DNA of 62,927 nt, filler included, from Stramenopiles sp. TOSAG23-3 (taxonomy: Eukaryota), in the NCBI GenBank assembly GCA_900128585.1. It is 11 parts of 11 records of this genome, joined end to end, with 100 filler letters (N's around TTAATTAATTAA, not from the genome) between each part and the next. Parts side by side here need not be neighbours in the genome. Positions count along the whole stretch, not along the records: positions 40,153 to 45,773 come from LT643471.1; 10 more parts are not named here. One strand, 5' to 3'. The notes beneath the pieces are model-generated. The model was not told the origin of the DNA, searched no databases, and saw only the letters and a program-made list of their open reading frames with translations. This document shows, one piece after another, positions 1 to 57,212 of the stretch (positions are counted from its first letter, which is position 1; each line of letters begins with the position of its first letter). The position numbers and the translations under genes are program-made.

Positions 1-79
1 GTTGATATATTAAATAACATGAAAGCACATTAAGTGGTGGTCGCTCGTTACTACTCGTGACACGCCCTTTTTCGCATCG
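1..79. repeat. Left arm of exact 79-bp terminal inverted repeat of contig 1 (partner 5569..5647)
   Basis: 1..79 is the exact reverse complement of 5569..5647; the match ends at base 80. Confidence 0.95.
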
Positions 80-630
80 GATATTGTTATAGGCGTCCCA
101 ATTATAGAGGGCCGACCATTTACTGATACGACTAGTTGCTGCAACGTTGTCAGTCCGTAAAGTGCTCCCCAGATAGTCTTCGAACGCAGAAAACACGCAC
201 CCGTCGTCGATACGTTCAAAGAGTATGATTCATCATCGTGCAAATCTTTTCCTCCCTCTGGATTCAAAGCTTCGGTTTCCACAAAAACTTTCAGTTCCAC
301 ATCATCGTACAGGCGTGAGAATTCGTTGCTACTCGATAGTGTTTCTGGCTCTGTCCCAGTGCCACGCTCGATCAGGGTTGGGGTGTCCATTGAGTGTGCT
401 TCAAAATATTTTATAGCTTGAAGAAGGATAGGCGAGTCTTTGCTTTTGCTGTTTGGCAGAAAGGTAACGCCAATAGGTTTTGATAGTGAAATGGTGCTTT
501 CATTTGAACATTCGATAGATCCCGGGATAGGCCAAAGCCAGTCCTTACAAGTGCCACCGCTATTCTTTGCCTCTGACAACCAACAGGTAAACACACCGAG
601 ATACAGTGCTCGAAGAAGATACCCTGTCAT
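80..630 (-). CDS. Beta-hexosaminidase (GH20) N-terminal domain, secreted; 3'-truncated by a fold-back junction at about position 79
   Basis: Signal-like start MTGYLLRALYLGVF, then WLWPIP, DDESYSLNV, IWGALYGLTTLQQLV and ITISDA. The expected PRF.RG catalytic-domain start is replaced by inverted-repeat sequence. Confidence 0.8.
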
Positions 631-1148
631 GGTCCAAACGCTGGGGAAACGGCCCGATACGAAGTGTAATTTTCTCTTTTTGATTCTATCCAAATGAAAC
701 GACGGTGAGATTAAACAATGAGATCGAAAAGTAGATATGTTGAGCTAATGCATAAAAAGTCACGAGTGAGTTTAATAAGCAGAGATGAGCTAGCGAACGG
801 CTTTGTTTTTTGTTGTTGTCATAGTATGGAGTTTGAGTGTGTTGCTCTTCTTGTTGGGACGTTCGTTGTTGTTTATAGTAGTTTCCTCGTATATAATACC
901 ACCACGGTAGATATGATAGCTAAATTAAATAATAAAATAATAGGGAGGAGCAGCAGAGAGCAACAAAAAGAGAAAAATGTGAAGAGAGAAGAGAAGAAAA
1001 GAAGAAAAGAAGAAGAAAGAACGAAAAAAAATTAGAGGAGGAGAGAGGTAGAGGAAGAGAACAGTTAGTAATAAAATTTTTAGAAGACTATATGATAGGT
1101 AATATCTTTTATCATACCAGCAATACATTGCTCCGGAACCCGTACCGA

Positions 1149-2435
1149 TTAGGTAGGGGGGGGGCGGGGACCATCAATTCGTATCGATGCATGTTTTGGT
1201 TCAACTTCGTGCTTTTTTCTTTTTCTTTTCTGGCCCGGAAGACTTTCCCGCCCCCCTAGTCCTTTTTTTATCCTTTTCCAGCCCCTCTGGTTTCGCAGTC
1301 GGGTCACGCGCTGGTTTCGTTGATTCGGGCTGAGAGCAGCACCAAAAGTCTCCGTGGCGGCGGCCGTGATCGACTTTTCGTCGGCAGTCGAGCTACTGTT
1401 TGAGTGCATGTTTGTCCATAGCTGCTCTAGCATTTGCATACAGGCGGGGTTATCACTCACCCATAAAATAAACTTTGCGCTTTGATTAGGGGTTAAGATT
1501 TCCTGAATCTCTTGCATCTCACGCTCAAGGGCGGTGTTCTTGGCTTCCACGCGCCCCCGCAAATCAGACAGCAGGTGCAAGGATGTCTTCAAATCCCCGC
1601 AGAGACCGCGAATGCGGCTTCGGTAAGACATTATTTTTCGCTTTTGTGCGTCTTTAACTTCAAGTTCTTGGCACAAAATGTTCCAAATCGATTGTCCAAC
1701 GGAGAGCTTTTTACCTTGGTTATCTTCATAAAACTCATCTTCTTGGTGAAGCGACCAAAGGCCCATTTTGGTCACTGTGGTCGGTTGAAGCAAACCTTCA
1801 AGTTGATCGATATGGTATCGTATGGACGAGCGTCGCTCTTGTCCGTAGTCAGCATATCGCTCCTTAAACATGTCAATGGTTTCTGCCAGTGCAGTGTCAC
1901 TCTCTTTCTGTTCCACCATACTCCGAATAAGATCGGTGATCCTCCATTTTTCGGCCTCGTCAGCTTCTGCACTGTCACGGCCTATCTTCAGCTGCACCCG
2001 AAGTTCTTGGTTGTTCCTCTCTAGGCGTTGGACGCGTTCTTCCAGCTCTTGCACCCGTTGTTTCTTGCGTTTGCGACAGTCTCGGGCACTCTGGCGGTTC
2101 TTCTCGAGGCGCGACAACGTTTTTTCGCTCTTTTTAGAATGCTGCTTGGCGGAGGACCCGTTTCCTTGCTGCTTCTGGCGCGCTTGTTTCTTTGTTGTAC
2201 TAGAGCCCCCAGCACCGGACGGAGCTTTCGAAACGTGACCATCTTGAAACCCCAAAGGGTCCACTACCTCGTCAAAGGGCTCTTGGTCATTGTTGCTGAG
2301 TAACCACTGATACATATCGTCCGTTTGGCTGTCTAATGAGTTTCGCCGCTCCGCGCCAGCGTCCAGAGAATTCCGTCTTATCAAAGGGCTATTTGGCGGG
2401 GACGCCAGCAAGTCAGCTACAGACGAAGCATCCAT
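1149..2435 (-). CDS. bZIP transcription factor with C-terminal DOG1/TGA-like helical domain
   Basis: Basic region RLEKNRQSARDCRKRKKQ, zipper LEERVQRLERNNQELRVQL, and motif EILTPNQSAKFILWV. ATG at 2435. The C-terminal tail may be frameshifted. Confidence 0.85.
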   Translation of the reverse strand: MDASSVADLLASPPNSPLIRRNSLDAGAERRNSLDSQTDDMYQWLLSNNDQEPFDEVVDPLGFQDGHVSKAPSGAGGSSTTKKQARQKQQGNGSSAKQHSKKSEKTLSRLEKNRQSARDCRKRKKQRVQELEERVQRLERNNQELRVQLKIGRDSAEADEAEKWRITDLIRSMVEQKESDTALAETIDMFKERYADYGQERRSSIRYHIDQLEGLLQPTTVTKMGLWSLHQEDEFYEDNQGKKLSVGQSIWNILCQELEVKDAQKRKIMSYRSRIRGLCGDLKTSLHLLSDLRGRVEAKNTALEREMQEIQEILTPNQSAKFILWVSDNPACMQMLEQLWTNMHSNSSSTADEKSITAAATETFGAALSPNQRNQRVTRLRNQRGWKRIKKGLGGRESLPGQKRKRKKHEVEPKHASIRIDGPRPPPT

Positions 2436-5747: not shown

Positions 5748-6085
5748 AAAGAAAGAAAGAAAGAAAGAACAAAATCGTGTTATTTATATTATTATTACAT
5801 CACACAGTATAGAGTGATGTTAAAAATTTCTTCTTCTTCTTCGTCGTCGCTCGTTCTTTTTTCTTTCTTCTTCCATTGTTGACACACCTCCTACTACCAA
5901 GCAAAGATGAAAATTTACTACGGTGTCGTTATTATTTATGTGAAAGAGTATCACAGAGGAAGACCAAAAACAAAATGTTTAGGATTTTAATGTGTTTAGG
6001 TGTTCAGAGGAAACTAACTGGGAAATTGAGTGTTTCCCGTTTTTCCACCAGACGCTGCGTTCTTCTATTTGTCTGTTCTTGAATT

Positions 6086-7318
6086 ATGGCCGCACGTCTC
6101 CTACTATTGTTCGTCGGCTGTTTCTCGTTTGTCCGCGGCACCCACATTGTCAGGCCAGAGGACTTTGGGGCTGTTGGGGATGGCAAAGCGAACGATTGGG
6201 TCCCAATACAGAAGTCGGTCGATTCGTGTGTTGGGTACGACGATTGTCGTGTCCTCCTTACGCAGTCGTATCTTTCGGGGTACATTTTGATAAAATCTGA
6301 CAATGTTGACTTTGTCATCACCGGGACGCTCGCAATTTTGCCGAAAACGCAGTACGCCAAGCTTCCGTCGTACAAAAGCTACGACTTCTTATCGAGCGGA
6401 AATTTACCCATAAAGAACGTCCAAGTGACAGGAAACGGGACGATACAGTCCACCTCTCCCATTGATTGGTGGGGATGCAAGTATTTGCCGAACGTCGACT
6501 GCTGGCGGCCAGCGTTTGTTTCCTTCACAAACGTAGAAGGCGTTCGCGTGAACCGTCTGAAATTTGAAAATTCGCCGAACCACAACGTAAAGGTTTACAA
6601 CTGTTCCAACGTGCGAATAGATCAAATCCATATCAAAGCGCCGTCGTTGTCCCCGAACACCGATGGGGTAAATTTTCACGGCGGGAGCGACCAATCGCTG
6701 ACTAATTCCATTATTGAAAATGGCGACGATTGTGTCAGCATAATTGCCAGTGGTGAATTCTTGCCCCAGTGCAAGGTTGCGCCAACGTCGAAAGAATGCC
6801 AAGGGGGGAACGTCGTTGTCCGGAACGTGACCTGTCACCACGGGCACGGCCTGTCCATCGGTGGGGTCCGGCAGGGGACGATAAGGAACGTAACGTTTGA
6901 AAATATCACTGCGACGGGTGGCATGTCCCAAGGCATATACAGCACAGGAGGGCTGCGCATCAAGTCCTACCCAAACGGGTCTGGGTCGGTGAGCAACATC
7001 ATGTACCGGAATATTGTCCTGGACAAAGTTTTCCTGCCCATTGAACTGCAGGCCCGGTATTGCGTATGGCCAAAGAAATGCCCTCCTGACGTCACCGCAA
7101 TCAAGTTTTTCAACATCACATTTGAAAACATTCGAGGGACAAGTTCACAGTGGCATCAAGTCGGTTTGTTGGCCTGCTCAAAAGTTTCTCCTTGCAAAAA
7201 TATAGTCCTCAAAAACGTTGTTTTGGGGGGACGCCACGGCGACGGCAAGTTTGATTGCACCAATACACAAAACGTACAGTTTCTCAATGGCTCTAACCCT
7301 AAAGCTTGCTCTTCTTAA
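6086..7318 (+). CDS. Secreted glycoside hydrolase family 28 (polygalacturonase-like)
   Basis: Signal peptide, DFGAVGDG, and all four GH28 motifs (NTDG, GDD, GHG, RIK). Cys-rich C-terminus. Confidence 0.92.
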   Translation: MAARLLLLFVGCFSFVRGTHIVRPEDFGAVGDGKANDWVPIQKSVDSCVGYDDCRVLLTQSYLSGYILIKSDNVDFVITGTLAILPKTQYAKLPSYKSYDFLSSGNLPIKNVQVTGNGTIQSTSPIDWWGCKYLPNVDCWRPAFVSFTNVEGVRVNRLKFENSPNHNVKVYNCSNVRIDQIHIKAPSLSPNTDGVNFHGGSDQSLTNSIIENGDDCVSIIASGEFLPQCKVAPTSKECQGGNVVVRNVTCHHGHGLSIGGVRQGTIRNVTFENITATGGMSQGIYSTGGLRIKSYPNGSGSVSNIMYRNIVLDKVFLPIELQARYCVWPKKCPPDVTAIKFFNITFENIRGTSSQWHQVGLLACSKVSPCKNIVLKNVVLGGRHGDGKFDCTNTQNVQFLNGSNPKACSS

Positions 7319-37270: not shown

Positions 37271-38320
37271 TTAGCACCCATCCCCCAAGCAATCTACTTC
37301 CCGCGTCACATTGCCATTACCGTACACCAAATCTCGCAGCCAGTCAACAAACGAGATGTTTTCAGAAACTACGTTGTACATTTCATCACTTTCTGTTATG
37401 ACGTGGATATTGCTGGGGGAAACGAAGCTCGCGTAATTGTCCAGGTTATCGGCCTTTATACCGTTGTGGACGAGAGCAATCGCATTTCGAAACGCTTTTT
37501 TCCAGTTGCACTTCTCGGCACCACAGCCTTCAAAGATGTAAAATGACGTTTGCACGGGGTCACGGTTTGAGATGTAAGAGGCAAACATTGCTTTGGGGTA
37601 GGTCCTGGCCGTAGCGTTCAAATTGGATGCACTGATATAATCTCTCCAACGCCCAATATCCATTCCTTTGACCCGCCTGTCGTACGACGACAAAGAATCC
37701 CAATTATCAAGGCCCCCGTTATAACCCGCCTCCCCAAACAAGGGGGCGTAGCTGTCTCCCAGGTGGTAGTGCTCAGAATTTGGATACATGTCAAAAATTT
37801 TTGGGGCCCAGACGTAGCTTGCAACGCTCCCGGCACTGCCGCCGGTCACAAAAACCTTTCCGGGGTTGTTTGACACGTTTGTTTTCAGCCACTCCAACGC
37901 AGCCTTTGCATTAACCTGCCCAGCATGGTGAACGCCGTAGCCTGGGGTCTTGTTTCCCATGTGTGCGTCTCCCGTGCAGTAAGGAATGTACAAATGGGAC
38001 CATCCCAGGAATGGATTCCTTGGGTCGCTTTGCGAACGAATTCCTCCCGAGTTTTTTAGACTATTTAGCTCGTCCCTTACACTTACTGTTCTCGTGTACG
38101 TCGGACCTAGACATGTCAACCCACTGTAGCAGCAACCCCCGCCTTCGAACTCTACAATAACATTATTCACAGTCCCCGTCCGCGCCATGTAAGCATACTC
38201 CCCGCCATGGGAACATATTGTTGGGGGGCCAGGCCTGAAAGCCTCCCAGTTGTTCGCACCAGCCAACTCGGCGAGGAGAAAACAGACCGAACAAAGGTAA
38301 GCGTTGCTTTTGAAGAACAT
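37271..38320 (-). CDS. Secreted pectin acetylesterase/Notum-family esterase
   Basis: Signal peptide, FEGGGCC, NPFLGW..YIPYCTGDAHMG, and nucleophile motif TGGSAGS. Confidence 0.88.
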   Translation of the reverse strand: MFFKSNAYLCSVCFLLAELAGANNWEAFRPGPPTICSHGGEYAYMARTGTVNNVIVEFEGGGCCYSGLTCLGPTYTRTVSVRDELNSLKNSGGIRSQSDPRNPFLGWSHLYIPYCTGDAHMGNKTPGYGVHHAGQVNAKAALEWLKTNVSNNPGKVFVTGGSAGSVASYVWAPKIFDMYPNSEHYHLGDSYAPLFGEAGYNGGLDNWDSLSSYDRRVKGMDIGRWRDYISASNLNATARTYPKAMFASYISNRDPVQTSFYIFEGCGAEKCNWKKAFRNAIALVHNGIKADNLDNYASFVSPSNIHVITESDEMYNVVSENISFVDWLRDLVYGNGNVTREVDCLGDGC

Positions 38321-39208
38321 ACTTGCTGCCCCAAAATGGTGGTGACCCCTTCCCTGGTGGCTTATAAAGTATCACCAAAATCCACCGCGAATCTCTGTGA
38401 AAGCACAAAATTAAAACACAAACTAGGCCGTCCATTTTCTCTTCCTCCATACTCTCATACCTTGCACCTACCGTGTACCGAATACCAGTATACCAAGTCT
38501 TTAGAGGTTCGTTACTTCGTTCGTCGTACGGTTATAATTAATATTGATTATTATTTATTAATTATGGCTTCTTCTTCTTTCTTGTTTAGTAGAGGAAGGA
38601 GGAGCGAGGAGGAAGACAGGAAGACAGACTGACTCACTGACTATTTTATGTGGGGCCTATTTTATTATAATGACACTTGGCTGCTGCTGTGGTGGTAATG
38701 ATGAATTATTATTATTATTAGTCTATGAAGAGCTACAGTATATTTAAAAAAAAAAAAAAAATAGAAAAATAATAATAATAATGCTTCTTCCTTTTTTGTT
38801 TTTGTGTTCTCATTAAGCTTAAGCATATATTAATATTATAGTCCTCTATTTTTTAATAAAAAAAAAAAATAAATAATTGAATTTTAATATTTAAAAGGTG
38901 GCTGGTATGTTGTTGTTGTGTTCCTTTATATTTTTTTTAATTAATATATAATACAGTAATAAAATATATTTTTTTTTATTTTTTATTTTTATATATAATT
39001 CTATAATAATAATACTACTCTGCTGTTGTATTTTATTAATTATTTTATTTTTTTTTTATTATTAAAATATTAATATATGGATTTAAGAAAAAAATGATAA
39101 TTGTTGAATGGACCTTGCTTTCTTCTGTATTTTTGTTTTGTTATGTTTCGATTGAAGGCAAAAAATAGGTTAAATAAGTTGTCAAGATTTTTTTTTACTG
39201 CCTTCTTT

Positions 39209-44128: not shown

Positions 44129-44568
44129 ATTAAGTACTAGAATGGTGTGCCTTTTAAACGGTAAAAGAAAGCTCCGGGTCGTTGATATTAGTTTTACATT
44201 TTCTTGTTACTTGCAACAGAATTGCATTCTTTTAGTTAGTTCGGTGAGCAAGGAGGGAACCCGCGAAATGACAAGGAGGAGGATGGAAAACAACACAAAG
44301 TTTTTTTGAATTCAAAATAATTAGGTTTTGTACTTGTATTTGGTATTAACAATGTTCAATATTCCTATCATTATAATAAATGATTATTATTAAAAAAAAC
44401 AAATTATATATAGTACTATTTAGATAGATTGATTATTATTATTTTTATACAATATTAATTTTATACTTTTTACTAAGTTATTACTTCGTATTTATTATTA
44501 TTATTTACATTTTTTTCGTTGCAAGAAGTTGTTCTTGCGCGCTATTCTTCATGATTTCATGGATGCAA

Positions 44569-45771
44569 TCATTTTTTCATACAGGATGCGGCGGCAGTAA
44601 ATCGAGGGCGACAACAAATATTGTCCGACCCTCCTTTGCAGTACCCTTTTTGTAGCACTCCGTCTGTGCAGGAAGACGTGGGTCCGCAGACCCCTACTAT
44701 TTCGTACATGCATGCTTTGCCAGGCTGGCCAATTTCCTTTGAATCGACTTCGAGGAGAAACGTATTTGCTCGCCTTCGCCGCGGCACGCTTGGGACGGGA
44801 ACATGCGGCAACACAGGGCACTCTTTCTTTAGCAATGTAAGGATTTCCCCCAGTTTCTTACTAGACTGCTTTCGGGATTGAAACGTACACCCCACCCCTT
44901 CGCATTTGCGACGAAGGGAGTTTGGCGCGAAATCTTTGGTTTTCTCTCCCGGGTGTGCCCCGTGAGCAACCACTACCCCAGGACATTGCCCCTTTTTGCA
45001 TTTAGCGTCCGTACGTATCAAGTCGACCCTTCTATTAACAGCCCTCCCTGCTGGATTATCTACCGAATTACCATTTATTACCCTATGGTTTGCGTTCACT
45101 GGGTCATTTTCGCCCCGGGTATACTTGCACGTGCGTAAATCCTCTGAAGTGGGGCTGCATTGTTGGGGGTCTTCTATTCGTTTCATGATACTCGGGTCCT
45201 TTCCTGCGATCTCTCTTACACGGGTGTAAACAGCAATCGCACGCCGAAGCCCAAGCTTGAAGTTGTAGTTCCAGCTACCCTTTGAGTCTGTATGCCCTTG
45301 TATCATAATGGTTGCAGTCGGATTTTTCCGTAGAAAGCATACATACAAGTTCAAGATTTCGTCATTTTCAGGAGCAAGTACGTCCGAATCAAACCCAAAT
45401 TTTAAATCCGCACTGAATCGACACGGCATATCCACAGCATTTGTTGTTTTGCAGCATTCTGCAAACGAACACACATTGTCTTTACACCTTGCATTTAGTT
45501 TTTTATCTTCTGTAACAAAAGCGCACTCGTGCACATTATCTGGGCATTCCAGCCCACAGAGAGATTTCCATTTCTTACTTTCCCTTGCACAAGTTTGGGG
45601 TACCTCTTCCTTCTCACAACAATCATCAAACGTACACCCACCTTCGCTCGCGCACTCGTGTTCATTAATGTGCTCGTCGGACTTAATTTTTCCACACTTT
45701 CCCTCTGATTTGGTGTTTTGAAGCTGGAGCAGAAACATGGTGTGGGCCCTTCGGTATCGTTTTGCTGGCGC
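44569..45771 (-). CDS. 5'-partial Cys-rich protein with OmpA-like C-terminal (peptidoglycan-binding) domain and a C-terminal six-Cys beta-defensin-like module
   Basis: Frame is open to the contig edge (APAKRYRRAHTMFLLQL). OmpA motifs: FGFDSDVL..IQGHTDSKGSWNYNFKLGLRRAIAV..GENDP..GRAVNRRVD. Cys module: C-x7-C-x5-C-x9-C-x7-CC. Confidence 0.85.
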   Translation of the reverse strand, partial: APAKRYRRAHTMFLLQLQNTKSEGKCGKIKSDEHINEHECASEGGCTFDDCCEKEEVPQTCARESKKWKSLCGLECPDNVHECAFVTEDKKLNARCKDNVCSFAECCKTTNAVDMPCRFSADLKFGFDSDVLAPENDEILNLYVCFLRKNPTATIMIQGHTDSKGSWNYNFKLGLRRAIAVYTRVREIAGKDPSIMKRIEDPQQCSPTSEDLRTCKYTRGENDPVNANHRVINGNSVDNPAGRAVNRRVDLIRTDAKCKKGQCPGVVVAHGAHPGEKTKDFAPNSLRRKCEGVGCTFQSRKQSSKKLGEILTLLKKECPVLPHVPVPSVPRRRRANTFLLEVDSKEIGQPGKACMYEIVGVCGPTSSCTDGVLQKGYCKGGSDNICCRPRFTAAASCMKK

Positions 45772-45773
45772 AT

Positions 45774-46928: not shown

Positions 46929-49900
46929 CTATGTCCCCGCATTCCTTACCTCTTGGACGCTGGCTCTCGCCGCCTTCTGCAACGAGGCATACTTTGCTTT
47001 AAAGGTAAGGTCTGATGCGGCGTTGTCCCCGTGGCAACTTAGGCTCAACCGGGGGCGCTGCAACGCAAGCTCTCCGCTCACGGAGGGACTGCTGAAACTA
47101 ACAGCGTCTGACTTGACCCCGTCGTGGATTATGGTGAAGCCATAATTCGATTTTCTATTGCTAATCCAATCCCGCACCCAATCGGTGACGTCTAATGCCA
47201 CAAAATTGTATATGCGCGACGCCTTCGCAGTTTTGCAATCGGTCATGCCTGGCATAACCTGTTCGCTGAACGTATTGAAGGTGATATCGCTGTCCCACGG
47301 CTTAATGTTCTTGCAATATTTAAACGACGTGCCACTCTGGCTTGTTACAAAAAGCCGCAATTTGGATGATTTTATCATGGCCCCTTCCTCCGCCTTGGAT
47401 ATCAATTCGCCTAGTGCAATTTTCATCAAAATGTACGCGGAGTTGGGGGAATCGTCGTAGGACATTAAGGATTGCCCAATCTCCTGCACCTTCTCTAAGG
47501 ACGATTTGGTCGCCCCAGACACGGCCATCGCGACCGTCAGCTTCTCCGAATCCAACGGGGTTACGAAGGGGGACTGGCGATTCCGGGCGCTCTTGCAAGA
47601 CCATCGGGATGCCCCGAGGTGTTCTTTGCTATAACTGTGCCATGCGTCAGTGGTGTCAATGCGGCACATTGCGGAAGTTTTTATCTTCGCGTACGACGAG
47701 TGGGAGTAAATCCAGAATGCTTTCGACGCCATGCCTGGGACGACCCCCCATGGCACCGTCCCTTCCCCTTCGTTGGTCCCGATCTCTGCGGCTTTTGCCC
47801 AGTTGGTGTCGTCATGGTCTGCCTTGGCCAAGGCCGCGGCATTTTCGTCAAACAAAAGGTCCTTACACTTCCAGGTAGAACTGGACACTATACTATCTCC
47901 AATGGACGCGATGAACCCGGCGCGGTTGTTTCCCCTTCCGTTGACTTTCACGGCGAACGATTTCGACGCGGGGTCTACGCGGAACCGGGAGATCTCTTTC
48001 ATTTCGTTGTACTTTCCAGTGCCAACCAACTTCCCATCCGCAAAGAGCTCGAAACTGTCGTCTGCTAAAATTCGAACCGGCCAGCCCCCCGTCACTACCT
48101 TGACATCGTCTATGCCAAATACATTGCAACAGTAGCAATCGTGCGCCTCCTGGTAAAACCGGATTCGCAGCTTCTGGCCTTTGTTTGCTGGGTTGGACGG
48201 GTGCAGCTGCCGGTCAACGGCTTCTTGCGGGATGCGCAGGGTCATCAAACTCCAGTCTGTCGTCATGTTGGTCTCCGCGTAAAGCTTTGCCGGGAACGCT
48301 TTCAACTGCTTCCAAATGCACAACTTGTTTACGGACTCCATGGTATGCTTGCTCAGTGGGTTGGATCGCATGTCTTCCTTGGCCGCGAGGCACTCCTTCG
48401 TCTCTGGGTACTTGCAGTCCTCCACGCACCATTGAACGACTGGGTCTGTTTTCCCCGGCATCCTCAACGCGGCGCCGTCCGCGACCATATGTTTTTCGTC
48501 GTGCTCGTTCGCCTTGACATCTGCAAATATATTTGCCTCTTCCTTCTTCGCAACCTCGCACGCGCTTTCTAGCACGTGTTTTCCCAACATGCGCCCAACT
48601 TTGACAAAGTCTTGTACGCACGTTTCCATCGCCTTCGAGTCGGGGGCGGGCATGCCAGTGCACTCAACAAGCTTCGCTTTGCACAGCTCCGTGGCCTCTT
48701 CGGTGCTAATGACGTCGCTTTTCGGCTGCATCGCTTTCGCGGGCGCCGCTTTTGGGAGCCGCCTGGACACAATCCTGGAAAAAATTCGCTTGAATTTGAA
48801 GTTCTGGTTGTACACGGGGGGCTCGAAACCGGAGCAAGAGAAGTGTGAGTTTTCTTTCGTCTTTATCGTCATGGGGCCACTGAAGAACTCTTTCGATGTC
48901 ATGTGGAAATCCCCTCGCTTCCCGCTGGAAGCGAGGAGCTTTTCGCCGCTAGTGTCGCCGCTGGTCCCTTTGTTTCCGTAGTACCCGCACAGGCCGGTCG
49001 ACTTTCCGTCGCGAGGAGATTTGACCGTCAAATACGAGTTCAATCCTTCGCCGCAATCGTACTCAATGGACCAGCCATTGACCGAGATCGTGCTGGTGGT
49101 GACTTTGATCCCTAACTTTGTCGTGAAGTCACGCGTCTTTTGTTCGATACACTTTTCGCCATCTTGATAGAAAAACTTGCAATCCATCATCGAGACGGTG
49201 TCGCACGGCCCTTTCATGTTCCCGCCCTTGTTGGTAACGCCGTCTTGGAACGGACCCCCATTACAGACACGAAGGGACACGCCCGCATTCTTTGCCCTGG
49301 ATCCAGCCGCTTTCGTGACGACGTGCGCTTCGACGTTCACGTCTGGATGGCGGGACCAAACAAACTCGCCGACGTCATACAGGTTGAAACTCTCCCCGTT
49401 TGCGGTGCTTGGGTGGGGCAAAAGGCCCACGTTGCGGCAGCGGCTGAAGCCGTCTTTCGTGTTTACCTTGGACACGATCCCGCAGTTTTTACCCATGTAG
49501 TCCGCCTCGCACTTGCAAATACAGGCCATTGCCTTTTCGTTGTGGCACAGGTATTTATCTTTGTCGGAGCGCGCGCCTTCGACCCAACGCCCGTCCTTGA
49601 AGCACGAGGATTGGTAGACCCCGGTCCCGTGCCCACTGCAGCCCGGTTTGTCCTGGCACTTCTGGTACGCCTCCAGTTCTCGGATCCTGCGCTGTGCTTG
49701 ACGTTTCTCGAGCCTTACCAAGCCTTCATGGTTGATCTGGCAGATCTTGTCGCCCTTGTCGGGGCCGTCCTTCAGGTAGAACGAAATTAACCCACCCTTC
49801 GAGGCGTCTATTTCCTTTGTCGTCAAGTACCGTGCACCTCCGTGCTTCAGGGTACGCACGCCGTCCTTGTTGCCCGCGAAAAGGGCTGCGTTGTGGCCTT

Positions 49901-50555
49901 TCCCCACGGAGCCAAGCATGGTGGACTGGAGCACTTCTGAGAGCGTACTCAACTCTTTGTCCCACGTATGCCCTTCGAACTCGACCGGACCGTTCTCGCT
50001 GCCCATCGCATATCGCCTCCTTCCACCGTACCCCCCAATGACTTTGCCTTCGAAAGTTTCGTGAAACACTGTCACCGGCTTGCCCGCGGTGCGGTCGGGC
50101 TTTTCAAACGCGTTCTGGCCGTCGGCATCGCCCTGTGGTAGCTTTTGCTTGCTGCATCTTTCAAACGCGGTTGTTAGTGTTTCCAGGTTCAGCTGCTTGC
50201 AGGGGTTTTGGTCGGCGAAGCATGTGGCGGCCTTCTTCAACACTGCCGTGTTGAACGTGGGGCATTTCAATTTTTCTAAATAAAATTTGAAAGTAAAGTC
50301 TCTCTCCTCGCCGTCTTTGCCTGTGCCAATGCGACACTCCGGCTTTAGGTTGTACGTTTTTACTTCCCCATTCCCGCACCTTTTCGATTTTGGGCCGACA
50401 CTGCTACCCCCAAGAGTACCGCCGCTCTTCGCCACTCGTCGTTGAGACAGCGTTTTTAACGATTCGACCGTGTGCAGCTTGTGGACCGCAGCTAACACAT
50501 CCTGAGACCCAATAAGGACCAGGAAGAAAATCGCTAGGTGAACCTTTGACGTCAT
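46929..50555 (-). CDS. Secreted modular protein: split reelin-like domain containing EGF + VWD insert, CBM67-like lectin domain, DNRLRE/CBM96-like domain
   Basis: Signal peptide. Reelin halves: AALF.G..RYLTTKEID..ISFYLK and RIRFYQ..FGIDDV. EGF: CSGHG..CKC...YMGKNC. VWD: GLCGYY. Lectin-like: ADDSFELFADG..SSTWKC..DDTNW..PWG..AFWIY. C-terminal: LDVTDWVRDW..NYGF..FSS..RPRL. Confidence 0.75.
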   Translation of the reverse strand: MTSKVHLAIFFLVLIGSQDVLAAVHKLHTVESLKTLSQRRVAKSGGTLGGSSVGPKSKRCGNGEVKTYNLKPECRIGTGKDGEERDFTFKFYLEKLKCPTFNTAVLKKAATCFADQNPCKQLNLETLTTAFERCSKQKLPQGDADGQNAFEKPDRTAGKPVTVFHETFEGKVIGGYGGRRRYAMGSENGPVEFEGHTWDKELSTLSEVLQSTMLGSVGKGHNAALFAGNKDGVRTLKHGGARYLTTKEIDASKGGLISFYLKDGPDKGDKICQINHEGLVRLEKRQAQRRIRELEAYQKCQDKPGCSGHGTGVYQSSCFKDGRWVEGARSDKDKYLCHNEKAMACICKCEADYMGKNCGIVSKVNTKDGFSRCRNVGLLPHPSTANGESFNLYDVGEFVWSRHPDVNVEAHVVTKAAGSRAKNAGVSLRVCNGGPFQDGVTNKGGNMKGPCDTVSMMDCKFFYQDGEKCIEQKTRDFTTKLGIKVTTSTISVNGWSIEYDCGEGLNSYLTVKSPRDGKSTGLCGYYGNKGTSGDTSGEKLLASSGKRGDFHMTSKEFFSGPMTIKTKENSHFSCSGFEPPVYNQNFKFKRIFSRIVSRRLPKAAPAKAMQPKSDVISTEEATELCKAKLVECTGMPAPDSKAMETCVQDFVKVGRMLGKHVLESACEVAKKEEANIFADVKANEHDEKHMVADGAALRMPGKTDPVVQWCVEDCKYPETKECLAAKEDMRSNPLSKHTMESVNKLCIWKQLKAFPAKLYAETNMTTDWSLMTLRIPQEAVDRQLHPSNPANKGQKLRIRFYQEAHDCYCCNVFGIDDVKVVTGGWPVRILADDSFELFADGKLVGTGKYNEMKEISRFRVDPASKSFAVKVNGRGNNRAGFIASIGDSIVSSSTWKCKDLLFDENAAALAKADHDDTNWAKAAEIGTNEGEGTVPWGVVPGMASKAFWIYSHSSYAKIKTSAMCRIDTTDAWHSYSKEHLGASRWSCKSARNRQSPFVTPLDSEKLTVAMAVSGATKSSLEKVQEIGQSLMSYDDSPNSAYILMKIALGELISKAEEGAMIKSSKLRLFVTSQSGTSFKYCKNIKPWDSDITFNTFSEQVMPGMTDCKTAKASRIYNFVALDVTDWVRDWISNRKSNYGFTIIHDGVKSDAVSFSSPSVSGELALQRPRLSLSCHGDNAASDLTFKAKYASLQKAARASVQEVRNAGT

Positions 50556-51493
50556 GTTGAACTCTCCAGTCAACCACAATAAATTCTAGACACGTTTCTG
50601 TACCTTCCAGAGACTGTCCCACAGTTTTAGATTGATTCTCTCGCCAATGCAATCGATGTGCACAGACCTGCGCTTCTTCTTCTCACTATCCAAAATTGAT
50701 GACGATTATTGCCTTTTCCGTAATTATTCCGTGCTAATCATATTGAGTCTATGGTAGGGCCATGTAGTACCGCTTATGTGGAAATCCCCCCCCTTTTTTT
50801 TCTCTTCGGCGGGTTTTGCGTCTTTTTAAGAAAATTTTCATTTCTACAAATAGTAGTATACTTAATGGTATATATAAGTATATACTAATATTTTATTAAG
50901 TACATTAAGTCACCTGTATAAAAAACAAAAAGATTACCATTTTCGATCCTCAGGATTCTAACGTGCAGAAATAGGATTTCAATGCTCTGTCTTTTTTAAC
51001 TGTCTTCCTCCCTTTGTAAATTAAGGCATACATGATTTAAATTATTTATTAAATATTTTATAACTATCTAGTCGTATATAATAAGACAAACTATATATAT
51101 ACTACAAAACACCTTAAGATTGTTCTCTAAATAAAATAGAATGAGGAACAGAAGAAGAGAGAAGAGAAGGAAGGACAAGACTTCCCCAAAAGCTTTTACA
51201 TAGTAGTACAGCTAATATATGATTGTGATTGACCTAAAAGATATCCAAATCACGTAACAATTTTAGTCGAATAAAACTAACAATGATATAACTATATTAA
51301 ATATATACTAACTACGTTAAGTATGTGATTCAGAGAGATATACAAACATTCGGAGATTCGGAGTTGGAAATAGAGAGATGAGAGCTGACAGCTGACAGCT
51401 GCTGACGACAACAACGAAGAAGAAGAAAGAAGAACGACGAAGAAATAATAATAATAAAAAATAATACCACCACCAACAACAACAACCAAAAAA

Positions 51494-55541: not shown

Positions 55542-57133
55542 TCACTCCGCAACACATGGATACTCAATTGGTTTTATGTTAGCGACGCCAAGCCTGCTGC
55601 TCTTGAGGTACCGCTTCCTGATGACCAGCAGCGTGTTGTCCTTATTAAATGACAGAGCGTGCATGTCGCAAATGGCTGTCACGCACTCCCTCAGGCTACT
55701 CCAGCGATACCCACTTATTGCACTCAACCAGGCTTCCCAGAAGGGCTTTTTCAAGCACTGCAGGGCACGAATTATACAAGCCGCCGCAACTTTTGAAGGT
55801 TGCACGGACACCGACACGAGGTATTCCTGCAAAGACAGCTCTGCCAGGTACTTTGACAACGGCGCGACCCGCCCATCTTCAAAATAAGGGCAGTGTTCAA
55901 GGTACATGTTCAGAAAGTCCAGGACGGTGGAAGACGACAGTTTGAACTCCAACGAGTTGAGAACTTTCTCTTCCAGGCTCAGGACATGCTTGGAATGGTA
56001 GACATTGTCCGCGCAGACGGCAAGGTCGTCAACTCCAATGTACGAAACGTCTTCACATTTTGAGGCTATGTGAAGGCAAGTGGCCCCAAGAAGCTGGAAT
56101 TTGCTACGGCTGATTACGGTGGTGCCTAAGTATCGGTCCACGTACTGGACGGCAAGGAATGCGCTTCGCAGGCTCATTTCGAACACGTCCACCACCTCGA
56201 TCAACCAATCGACCAGCATGGCGCGGTGGTTCTGCCGCAATTCGTTTTGAAGCGGCAGGTAATCACGGAAAGGGAAACGGGAACTTTCTAAGCTGCGAAT
56301 GTAGGCGTGGTAATTTCCAAGGAACTGCAAATCGTACCCCCCAATCTGGTACGCCAGTCGAGAACTCTCGATGAACGACGAGCACGGCTGAATGCCCGCT
56401 TCGCCGTCCACCAGCCCAAGTGCACGGAGGCCACGGAGGGGGGGGAACGATAGCTTTTCCCCTTTCGCGGGACTATTCGACGTCAAGGCGTTGCTCCCGT
56501 CAAAATACGAGCATGACAGGGCGTCCTCTGCCGTAGTGCGCTTTCGAGGGTCTAATGCCAGGAGCCCTGACAGCACACTTCTCGCGGCTGGCTCTAGGGC
56601 GGGCAGGACTTTCGTCAGGTCTTTCGGCTTCCAGTTGGGGAAAGAAAATCTATAGTTGGGCAAGCTCTTGAACTCGGGCCAATCGCTTGCAGGAGTCCCT
56701 AAGGTGCTAAATATCTGAAAAAGTTGGTCGATCTCGCAGATTCCTGGGAAAAAGGGTCTACCAAGGGCCATTTCGGCGAAAATGCACCCTATAGACCACA
56801 TGTCAACAGGAAGAAAGTACCGGTCCCCCATCAGCACCTCCGGAGGCCGGTACCACAGCGTCACCACCTCCGTGGTGTACGTTCGGAGGGGGATGCAGGT
56901 GGACCGCACCAGTGCAAAATCGGACACTTGCAAGCGGGCTTTTGATACGTCCCCGTCGGGGCCCAACTTGATAAGCAAATGTTTTGGTTTCAAGTTTCTA
57001 TGGACAACGCCACGGCGATGACAATACGCAATCGCGCCGATGAGTTGGTGCATGAACATTTTAATGACGCCTTTGCTGAGGGGCTTCCCCCCGGTCGGGT
57101 TCTTGGCCGGGTTTATCAAATCGTACATGGTGC
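55542..57133 (-). CDS. CDK-like (pseudo)kinase domain fused to an A/B-type cyclin; 5'-truncated by a fold-back junction
   Basis: Kinase: HRNLKPKHLL, SDFALVR, YTTEVVTLWYRPPE, DMWSIGCIFAEM, EIDQLFQIF..LGTP. Cyclin box: HRAMLVDWLIEV..VDRYL..FQLLGATCLHIASKCED, then YLAELSL and PSKVAAA. Confidence 0.9.
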
Positions 57134-57212
57134 ACGATGGGGGGAAGCCGGTCAACCATGCCGAGGCAGGCGCAAAGGACCAGCGTAAACTTGAGCAGGC
57201 GAACCGGCGCAA
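57134..57212. repeat. Right arm of 79-bp terminal inverted repeat of contig 10 (Rab coding sequence)
   Basis: Exact reverse complement of 51594..51672. Confidence 0.95.

Follow-up and report, generated by a model that had tools for sequence, protein, structure and literature searches.

The window analyzed here is a 62,927-base stretch of DNA from Stramenopiles sp. TOSAG23-3 (GCA_900128585.1) that consists of 11 contigs of near-equal size (5615 to 5647 bases; G+C 43% to 51%) joined by N44-TTAATTAATTAA-N44 spacers. Because it is a chain of separate contigs, neighborhood arguments are valid only within one contig. Our subject is a cysteine (Cys)-rich gene at the end of the contig at 40153-45773 (LT643471.1; 48% G+C). 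Its product has an architecture that is new for eukaryotes: it combines tandem Cys units, an intact Pal-type OmpA-like domain whose insertion and extension are lineage specific, and a six-Cys domain, as yet unclassified, that also occurs in a secreted lipase. We regard this architecture as the firm result of the analysis.

Translation of 44569-45771 on the minus strand gave a single open frame of 400 residues and a stop codon, open to the contig edge, in which every sequence feature named in an initial annotation of this DNA was present at its proper place (Table 1). The same contig carries an uninterrupted spastin-like gene of 693 amino acids (aa) with AAA, MIT, and Vps4_C domains, as well as a 451-aa RING-finger gene with an acidic tail. 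On the basis of these two genes, the Cys-rich OmpA gene is eukaryotic and not bacterial DNA, as the initial annotation had maintained.

Table 1. Features of the Cys-rich OmpA gene (positions are those of the window)
Feature	Position	Strand	Basis or remark
Cys-rich eukaryotic gene, 3' part	44569-45773	(-)	400 codons, stop at 44569-44571; cut at contig end inside tandem repeat
KRYRR-AHTMFLLQL, motif copy 2 of 3 in 530-aa form	45721-45762	(-)	Sequence
Cys module C-x13-C-x5-CTFDDCC, then C-x10-C-x3-C	45544-45696	(-)	Homologous to unit upstream
CASEGGCTFDDCC	inside 45616-45696	(-)	
Half-module CKDNVCSFAECC	45451-45486	(-)	U2 versus U2b alignment, z 5.9
OmpA-like domain (Pal/OmpA C-terminal type)	45010-45426	(-)	Pfam, PDB sequences, AF2, Foldseek
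GHTD	45286-45297	(-)	In OmpA-like domain
LGLRRA	45238-45255	(-)	In OmpA-like domain
NRRVD	inside 45010-45036	(-)	In OmpA-like domain
Cys-stapled, partly helical extension, CKKGQC ... CEGVGC ... KKEC	44818-45009	(-)	Common to eukaryote-like relatives
RRRR, then ANTFLLEV (motif copy 3); candidate kexin/furin-type site	44746-44781 (RRRR 44770-44781; ANTFLLEV 44746-44769)	(-)	Sequence
Six-Cys module C-x7-C-x5-C-x9-C-x7-CC; conserved GxC, G, GxCxG	44611-44712	(-)	Alignment of four copies
C-terminal tail RPRFTAAASCMKK, lone Cys	44572-44610	(-)	Similar tail, FTATPSCMRN, ends P0049

Tandem repeat and transcripts

A longer, 530-aa form of the protein (P0002/P0156) was found by database search on contigs of 7.7 and 9.6 kilobases. 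Over the common part it is identical to the window protein bar one residue (Lys in the window, Thr in P0002), and upstream it adds an acidic spacer, another CTFDECC module, and a third copy of a short hydrophobic motif, KAVSFLQL, that is described below. The 530-aa form contains 38 Cys (7% Cys). Judging from another fragment, P0154, the Met at which it is called to start is probably internal and not the true start; P0154 has Val at this position and more Cys-rich sequence upstream.

The end of P0154 repeats its own beginning after 221 residues. In a public DNA contig, position 45773 is connected to 45613 through 502 intervening letters, which gives a period of 663 nucleotides (nt). The match of two RNA contigs to the window ends at 45613, where their loose letters translate to the alternative continuation of P0154 (manual reading, reverse complement). 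The window contig stops where it does because of this near-identical coding tandem repeat of ~663 nt, and the true N terminus thus lies beyond it. Each upstream repeat unit of ~221 aa comprises an acidic spacer and two subunits, both made of a basic-FLLQL motif and a CTFDxCC Cys module. Database gene calls at the locus differ in size (530, 321, 233, and 176 aa) because contigs end inside the repeat. Read depth is higher over 45631-45773; we do not take this as copy number. A search for longer relatives (929 to 2650 aa) found none among 4307 candidates, a result of little weight.

Internal alignment indicated that the N-terminal Cys units are mutually homologous (z 4.3 to 5.9). Units U1 and U2, for example, aligned with a score of 66 (z 4.7), whereas shuffles averaged 34.3 and 0 of 200 reached the observed score. 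The six-Cys unit at the other end of the protein was tried as a further relative of the CTFDxCC units, and the alignments were not significant (z -0.4 to 0.8). Beyond the short motif it is not detectably related to those units, and the repeated element is therefore the motif and not the whole unit. The ESM Atlas gave no usable match for residues 55-245 or 455-530.

The gene is widespread: the stretch is present in 20 of 24 listed runs, in 13 studies (marine metagenomes). Six of the rows are RNA, although presence in an RNA library does not prove transcription. In two runs, RNA contigs extend without joints over 44490-45773 and 44550-45522, so there is no intron in the covered part of the gene; these contigs end 20 to 80 nt beyond the stop codon, and a DNA run goes on. 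A cluster member of the target protein is labeled marine plankton, small size fraction.

OmpA-like domain and protein family

The initial annotation had reported a complete OmpA domain with the Asp and Arg of peptidoglycan binding. The domain proved complete and real, with one correction: it contains a Cys-containing insertion of ~40 residues (C205...C215 at 45127-45159). The Pfam family PF00691 matched residues 125-184 of P0001 with 40 bits against a cutoff of 27.2 (E 5.3e-10), and this match, which covers only the first 63 of 98 profile positions, halts at the insertion. Pal lipoproteins were the best matches among PDB sequences (E 1.5e-8); identity to bacterial Pal is 25-28%, and the signature GH.D...YN..LG.RRA.AV is retained. 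In the Pal alignment, GHTD (Asp162) and LGLRRA (Arg176/177) pair with GHaD and LGeRRA. One of the two arginines is presumably the equivalent of the Arg that binds diaminopimelate (DAP).

A whole-protein model from AlphaFold2 (AF2), built with 45 sequences, had predicted local distance difference test (pLDDT) values of 86-96 over residues ~121-260, insertion included. Foldseek returned 109 PDB matches at E ≤ 0.001, headed by OprF, Pal, YfiB, and OmpA (E 3e-8, TMt 0.8-0.89) and including the A. baumannii OmpA entries 3td4 and 3td5 (with diaminopimelate and with a peptidoglycan pentapeptide). In A. baumannii OmpA, one Asp and one Arg bind diaminopimelate, according to PMC5974059. By sequence comparison and predicted structure, the protist domain is a genuine OmpA-like domain that has the Pal/OmpA fold and keeps the DAP-binding Asp and Arg, and we infer that it would bind peptidoglycan. 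Among the matches listed in a search of the open-access literature, there was no eukaryotic OmpA-defensin protein and no eukaryotic or protist OmpA-like peptidoglycan binder.

When 1.84 billion representatives were searched with HMMER, 2030 matched at E ≤ 0.001, almost all of them over the OmpA part only. A small eukaryote-like set shares more than this: P0003 (61-63% identity), P0005, P0009, P0010, P0049/P0071/P0079/P0161, and P0030/P0160. P0003 and P0049 derive from a marine eukaryote transcript catalogue, and P0009, at 713 aa, has a hydrophobic, signal-like N terminus. Most members of the set keep both the insertion and the Cys-stapled extension that follows the OmpA-like domain (conserved HG, DF, C-x4-C, and C), the exception being P0003, a fragment that ends earlier. 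BLASTP alignments to P0049 (E 2e-15) and P0010 (E 1e-22) extend through the extension, in which AF2 placed helices at 283-292 and 300-317 (pLDDT 74-79) and for which no Pfam family was found. A Pro-rich linker lies between the end of the extension (KKEC) and RRRR.

Members of the P0049/P0071/P0079/P0161 subfamily are without the first half of the OmpA domain, which bears GHTD and RRA. In the P0161 group, a six-Cys module preceded by RRATSRRRLLSL runs straight into the second OmpA half and the extension. Since P0049 comes from a transcript catalogue, the module/half-OmpA region of this subfamily is exonic. Pattern scans with P0002 gave 43 matches in metagenome contigs and 2 in viral contigs, none of which was confirmed as a related locus.

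Six-Cys module and basic sites

Four copies of the six-Cys module, from three proteins, align with 10 invariant columns, namely, the six Cys and four Gly; the module is therefore a true domain and not a coincidental Cys pattern. P0161 has one module with longer loops. In a 654-aa class 3 lipase of another marine eukaryote, found in metagenome data, the module occurs twice in tandem directly after the signal peptide. This lipase (P0157; Lipase_3, E 3.4e-8) starts MNFKLFTFALVATVQLAMA, and its ATG is at base 60 of the metagenome contig L001, where it is listed as a closed open reading frame (ORF). It occupies 60-2024 (+) of that contig and has about eight 10-residue repeats of the KHYGGKLVDG type between the modules and the catalytic domain (GHSLGG).

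A profile of the module found only L001 among JGI metagenome contigs. The same profile confirmed none of 30 candidates in 185,579 prokaryote genomes and none of 80 candidates in viral contigs. A search for stand-alone small module proteins (25-144 aa) gave 1 match in 84 candidates, which by eye resembles a disrupted lipase N terminus. Pfam had no family at E ≤ 5 for the 73-residue C terminus, and the four-module profile had no match at E ≤ 10 among PDB sequences. By these sequence searches, the six-Cys module is rare and lies outside Pfam.

Beta-defensins space their cysteines about C-x6-C-x4-C-x9-C-x6-CC, and beta-/trans-defensins form a three-stranded antiparallel sheet with the pairing C1-C5, C2-C4, and C3-C6. 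The spacing of our module is within the beta-defensin range, with six Cys that end in CC and a Gly before C2 and C4. An AF2 model from the four-row alignment had pLDDT values of 65-71 for the module and a mean of 60 over 75 residues. This low-confidence model has strands at C2, between C3 and C4, and at CC, an order that we take to be the beta-defensin layout. In a VIA-align comparison with 48161 PDB representatives, human beta-defensin 4 (5ki9_A) was the only chain at Z ≥ 2; the match is weak (Z 2.2, root mean square deviation 4.5 Å, 43 of 43 residues aligned). Foldseek found nothing in the PDB for the module model at E ≤ 0.001 (best E 1.1, an unrelated chain), and a second look with VIA at its 11 rows found none at Z ≥ 2. 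The beta-defensin-like module of the initial annotation thus stands as to Cys spacing and the conserved Gly-x-Cys, but its fold has weak support (pLDDT 60, Z 2.2) and no profile match.

The pattern [ST].?FLL?[QE][LVI] matches the 530-aa form three times; of 20000 shuffles, 63 had one match and 0 had at least two. P0003 keeps motif copy 2 as RHSR-AQTLFLLQL, and P0010 has TR-HETFLEV aligned with copy 3. The motif is thus conserved in homologues and recurs beyond chance, in line with the initial annotation, which had also suggested looking for further RxRR-AxTFLL units upstream; one more copy exists, the third in the 530-aa form, but without R-x-K/R-R. Reading by eye gave seven copies across four proteins (P0002, P0003, P0010, and P0161). 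Six are immediately preceded by a basic residue, whereas the furin/kexin consensus R-x-K/R-R, which the annotation had recognized in RYRR and RRRR, precedes just those two, both in the window protein. Of the other five copies, one follows RR, one R-x-x-R, and two a single K or R, while one has no basic residue; P1 is Asn in copy 1 of P0003, and in P0010 only one Arg is present. On this evidence, a processing site at the motif is possible, although it is not a conserved feature of the family, and the conserved core is the hydrophobic part. The motif is coil in the small model and a low-confidence helix in the whole-protein model. PEXEL, RxLR, and diatom RXL motifs were considered, and our motif does not fit them.

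Function and relation to known systems

We propose that the open frame encodes the last 400 residues of a long, modular Cys-rich protein with which an uncultured marine picoeukaryote binds bacterial envelopes in the secretory pathway, where the protein would be secreted, held at the cell surface, or placed in the phagosome lumen; we consider this reading about as probable as all others taken together. Secretory character, read only from the Cys content and from the N termini of the relatives P0009 and P0157, is most likely. The OmpA domain would hold peptidoglycan, either of prey or of associated bacteria. For the six-Cys module we suggest a small disulfide-knotted, three-stranded domain with a trans-defensin-like layout that would target a component of the envelope or membrane, which would account for its attachment to both a peptidoglycan binder and a lipase.

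RRRR may be a site at which a kexin-like protease nicks the protein. There are 16 Cys between the start of the OmpA domain and the C terminus, six of them in the module, and the Cys of KKEC and of SCMKK have no evident partners of their own. P0049, which is without the six-Cys module, yet keeps both flanking Cys (AKEC ... FTATPSCMRN); this is why we infer that the two pair with each other. If so, the module would probably stay attached after a cut, giving a two-chain protein. Conservation of these Cys suggests that the motif and module form an insert in a disulfide-closed loop, embedded or tethered rather than freed. CaaX-type prenylation of SCMKK was considered and set aside, the protein being disulfide-rich.

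Several observations weigh against this proposal. No signal peptide was found at the called start of the 530-aa form. Prediction of the six-Cys fold is poor, with pLDDT 60 from the small alignment and about 40 when the whole protein was modeled. The module core has a slight negative charge (net -1.7), and the 66 residues that follow RRRR are only net +1.3, which is atypical of membrane-active defensins. The pairing of Cys318 with Cys397 is a guess from conservation. Given the P0049/P0071/P0079/P0161 subfamily, the C-terminal OmpA half and extension may act independently of peptidoglycan binding. Finally, the other contigs of the window give only general eukaryotic genes together with GH28, pectin acetylesterase, and hexosaminidase domains, and bacterivory finds no support there.

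The initial annotation had gone further and proposed a polyprotein, a secreted precursor cut into a peptidoglycan-binding unit and a defensin-like peptide that could serve prey sensing or killing. Spelled out, a furin/kexin-type convertase would cut at the basic sites ahead of the FLL motifs and release Cys-rich peptides together with the peptidoglycan binder and an antimicrobial peptide of beta-defensin type, which would kill or sense bacterial prey. Its appeal lies in the fit of RYRR and RRRR to R-x-K/R-R directly ahead of two motif copies, the basic residue before six of seven, an acidic run (DSDDDDD) ahead of the basic stretch as in many peptide precursors, the tandem repetition of the unit, and the fact that the sole structural match of the module is a beta-defensin. 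Big-defensin precursors are moreover ordered alike, with a dibasic site, a hydrophobic domain, and a beta-defensin-like domain, according to PMC7203481. We nevertheless judge this reading unlikely. Furin-type sites are present at two of seven copies, and the stand-alone search returned nothing but the apparently disrupted lipase N terminus. The lipase carries the module as a domain at its N terminus, and in our protein a conserved Cys pair brackets site and module, both of which argue for a domain and against a released peptide. The module core is not cationic. The module also ends a protein of more than 530 aa, where a small cationic peptide from a short prepropeptide would be expected. Only 19 residues separate RRRR from the first Cys; they hold a 6-residue hydrophobic core (coil, pLDDT about 50), in place of the ~35-residue hydrophobic N-terminal domain (beta-alpha-alpha-beta) of big defensins. 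Of the polyprotein interpretation there remain the features of an OmpA binder, the Cys spacing, and the motif; conserved sites, a confident fold, and cationic character do not.

A structural or adhesive role appears no more probable. The protein could belong to the surface, matrix, scales, or extrusive organelles of the cell itself, with the OmpA domain co-opted for an endogenous glycan or protein and the Cys modules acting as cross-links. Its 221-aa units in tandem, spacers of acidic low-complexity sequence, Pro-rich linker, and Cys content of 7% are features often seen in matrix and adhesion proteins, and the eukaryote-like OmpA family includes varied N-terminal parts (P0009, P0160) and some relatives without the domain half that bears the peptidoglycan-binding residues. 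Had the ligand been lost, however, retention of the DAP-binding Asp and Arg and of GH.D...YN..LG.RRA at 25-28% identity to Pal would be unexpected, and a partner module on a lipase fits attack on foreign envelopes better than self-assembly. Residual plastid peptidoglycan, discussed for some green algae and glaucophytes, would offer an organelle-envelope protein a ligand. The intact peptidoglycan-binding signature is all that speaks for this very improbable alternative; the multirepeat, disulfide-rich build is atypical of envelope proteins, and no photosynthesis or plastid family was seen among the 22 ORFs scanned with Pfam, which were picked from the 74 stop-to-stop frames of at least 150 residues in the window (weak evidence). 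The least probable reading, already all but excluded, is contamination of the bin by bacterial DNA or a dead gene from a recent transfer. The great majority of OmpA domains are bacterial, and most of the 2030 matches cover that part alone, but the gene shares its contig with spastin-like and RING genes, its 400-codon frame is open, and RNA libraries contain it. Its nearest relatives are also rich in Cys and eukaryote-like, two of them from the marine eukaryote transcript catalogue, and the module profile found nothing in 185,579 prokaryote genomes.

Elsewhere in the window, the genes are of common eukaryotic kinds (bZIP, RCC1-FYVE, Ras, WD40, RINGv, and a kinase-cyclin ORF), and by this gene content the source is an intron-poor eukaryote. 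The kinase-cyclin ORF at 55545-57212 (-) is a 556-aa open frame in which residues 43-237 form a protein-kinase domain and residues 303-547, after it, match Cyclin_N and Cyclin_C; a fusion and two adjacent genes read through are the alternatives. Three contigs, at 6083-7315 (+), 37274-38371 (-), and 13-744 (-), carry a polygalacturonase of GH28 (E 2e-54), a pectin acetylesterase, and a domain like beta-hexosaminidase; these genes point to a capacity for polysaccharide degradation, which may be relevant to how the organism lives. On the contig next to that of the Cys-rich gene, a 1216-aa ORF at 46929-50579 (-) has a signal-like N terminus and many Cys; its Pfam matches are weak (CBM96 at E 7e-5, below its cutoff), and we note it as a large secreted protein without a family.

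Little is known of the molecules with which heterotrophic and mixotrophic picoeukaryotes recognize, hold, and kill bacteria, and the OmpA domain and the six-Cys module are two concrete candidate envelope-targeting parts. It is also conceivable, if doubtful, that the module is a true trans-defensin fold outside animals, a mobile envelope-targeting domain on bacterium-directed effectors (the peptidoglycan binder and the lipase) that may be released at RRRR. PMC7203481 holds that trans-defensins evolved exclusively in animals; homology is therefore unlikely, and convergence is the default reading. Should the module nonetheless fold as a beta-defensin, it would challenge that animal-only view as stated there, implying either a convergent invention in a protist or a much older origin of the fold. 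If it does not, it is still a new, unclassified Cys-rich domain within a new eukaryotic OmpA architecture.

Among known systems, the closest to the central domain are the bacterial OmpA C-terminal, Pal, and MotB-type domains (PF00691), with which it shares the fold, the signature GH.D...YN..LG.RRA, and NRRV. Unlike these, the protist domain is eukaryote encoded, has neither lipobox nor beta-barrel, and is set in a repeat-built Cys-rich protein; its ~40-residue Cys insertion and Cys-stapled helical extension are common only to the eukaryote-like relatives. Kexin/furin-processed repeat precursors (fungal KEP-type and neuropeptide-like) have tandem units, acidic spacers, and basic sites before a short motif, as here. 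The present sites, however, are not uniformly dibasic (furin-type in 2 of 7), the units are ~221 aa long with folded Cys modules, and cleavage is hypothetical.

With beta-/trans-defensins the module shares a six-Cys frame ending in CC, and with big-defensin precursors, as described in PMC7203481, a basic site and hydrophobic stretch upstream. It departs from defensins in having no profile match and no cationic core, and in its placement within a >530-aa protein and in tandem at the N terminus of a lipase; the hydrophobic stretch, at 6 residues, is not the ~35-residue folded domain of big defensins. The module is also like those of the lipase P0157/P0024, which are 46% and 40% identical to that of the window protein in the alignment (53% for the tblastn segment on L001) and conserve all of the Cys and the four Gly. 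In the lipase, the modules are N-terminal, in tandem, and by eye strongly basic, and Lipase_3 follows them, whereas in the window protein the OmpA domain precedes the module.

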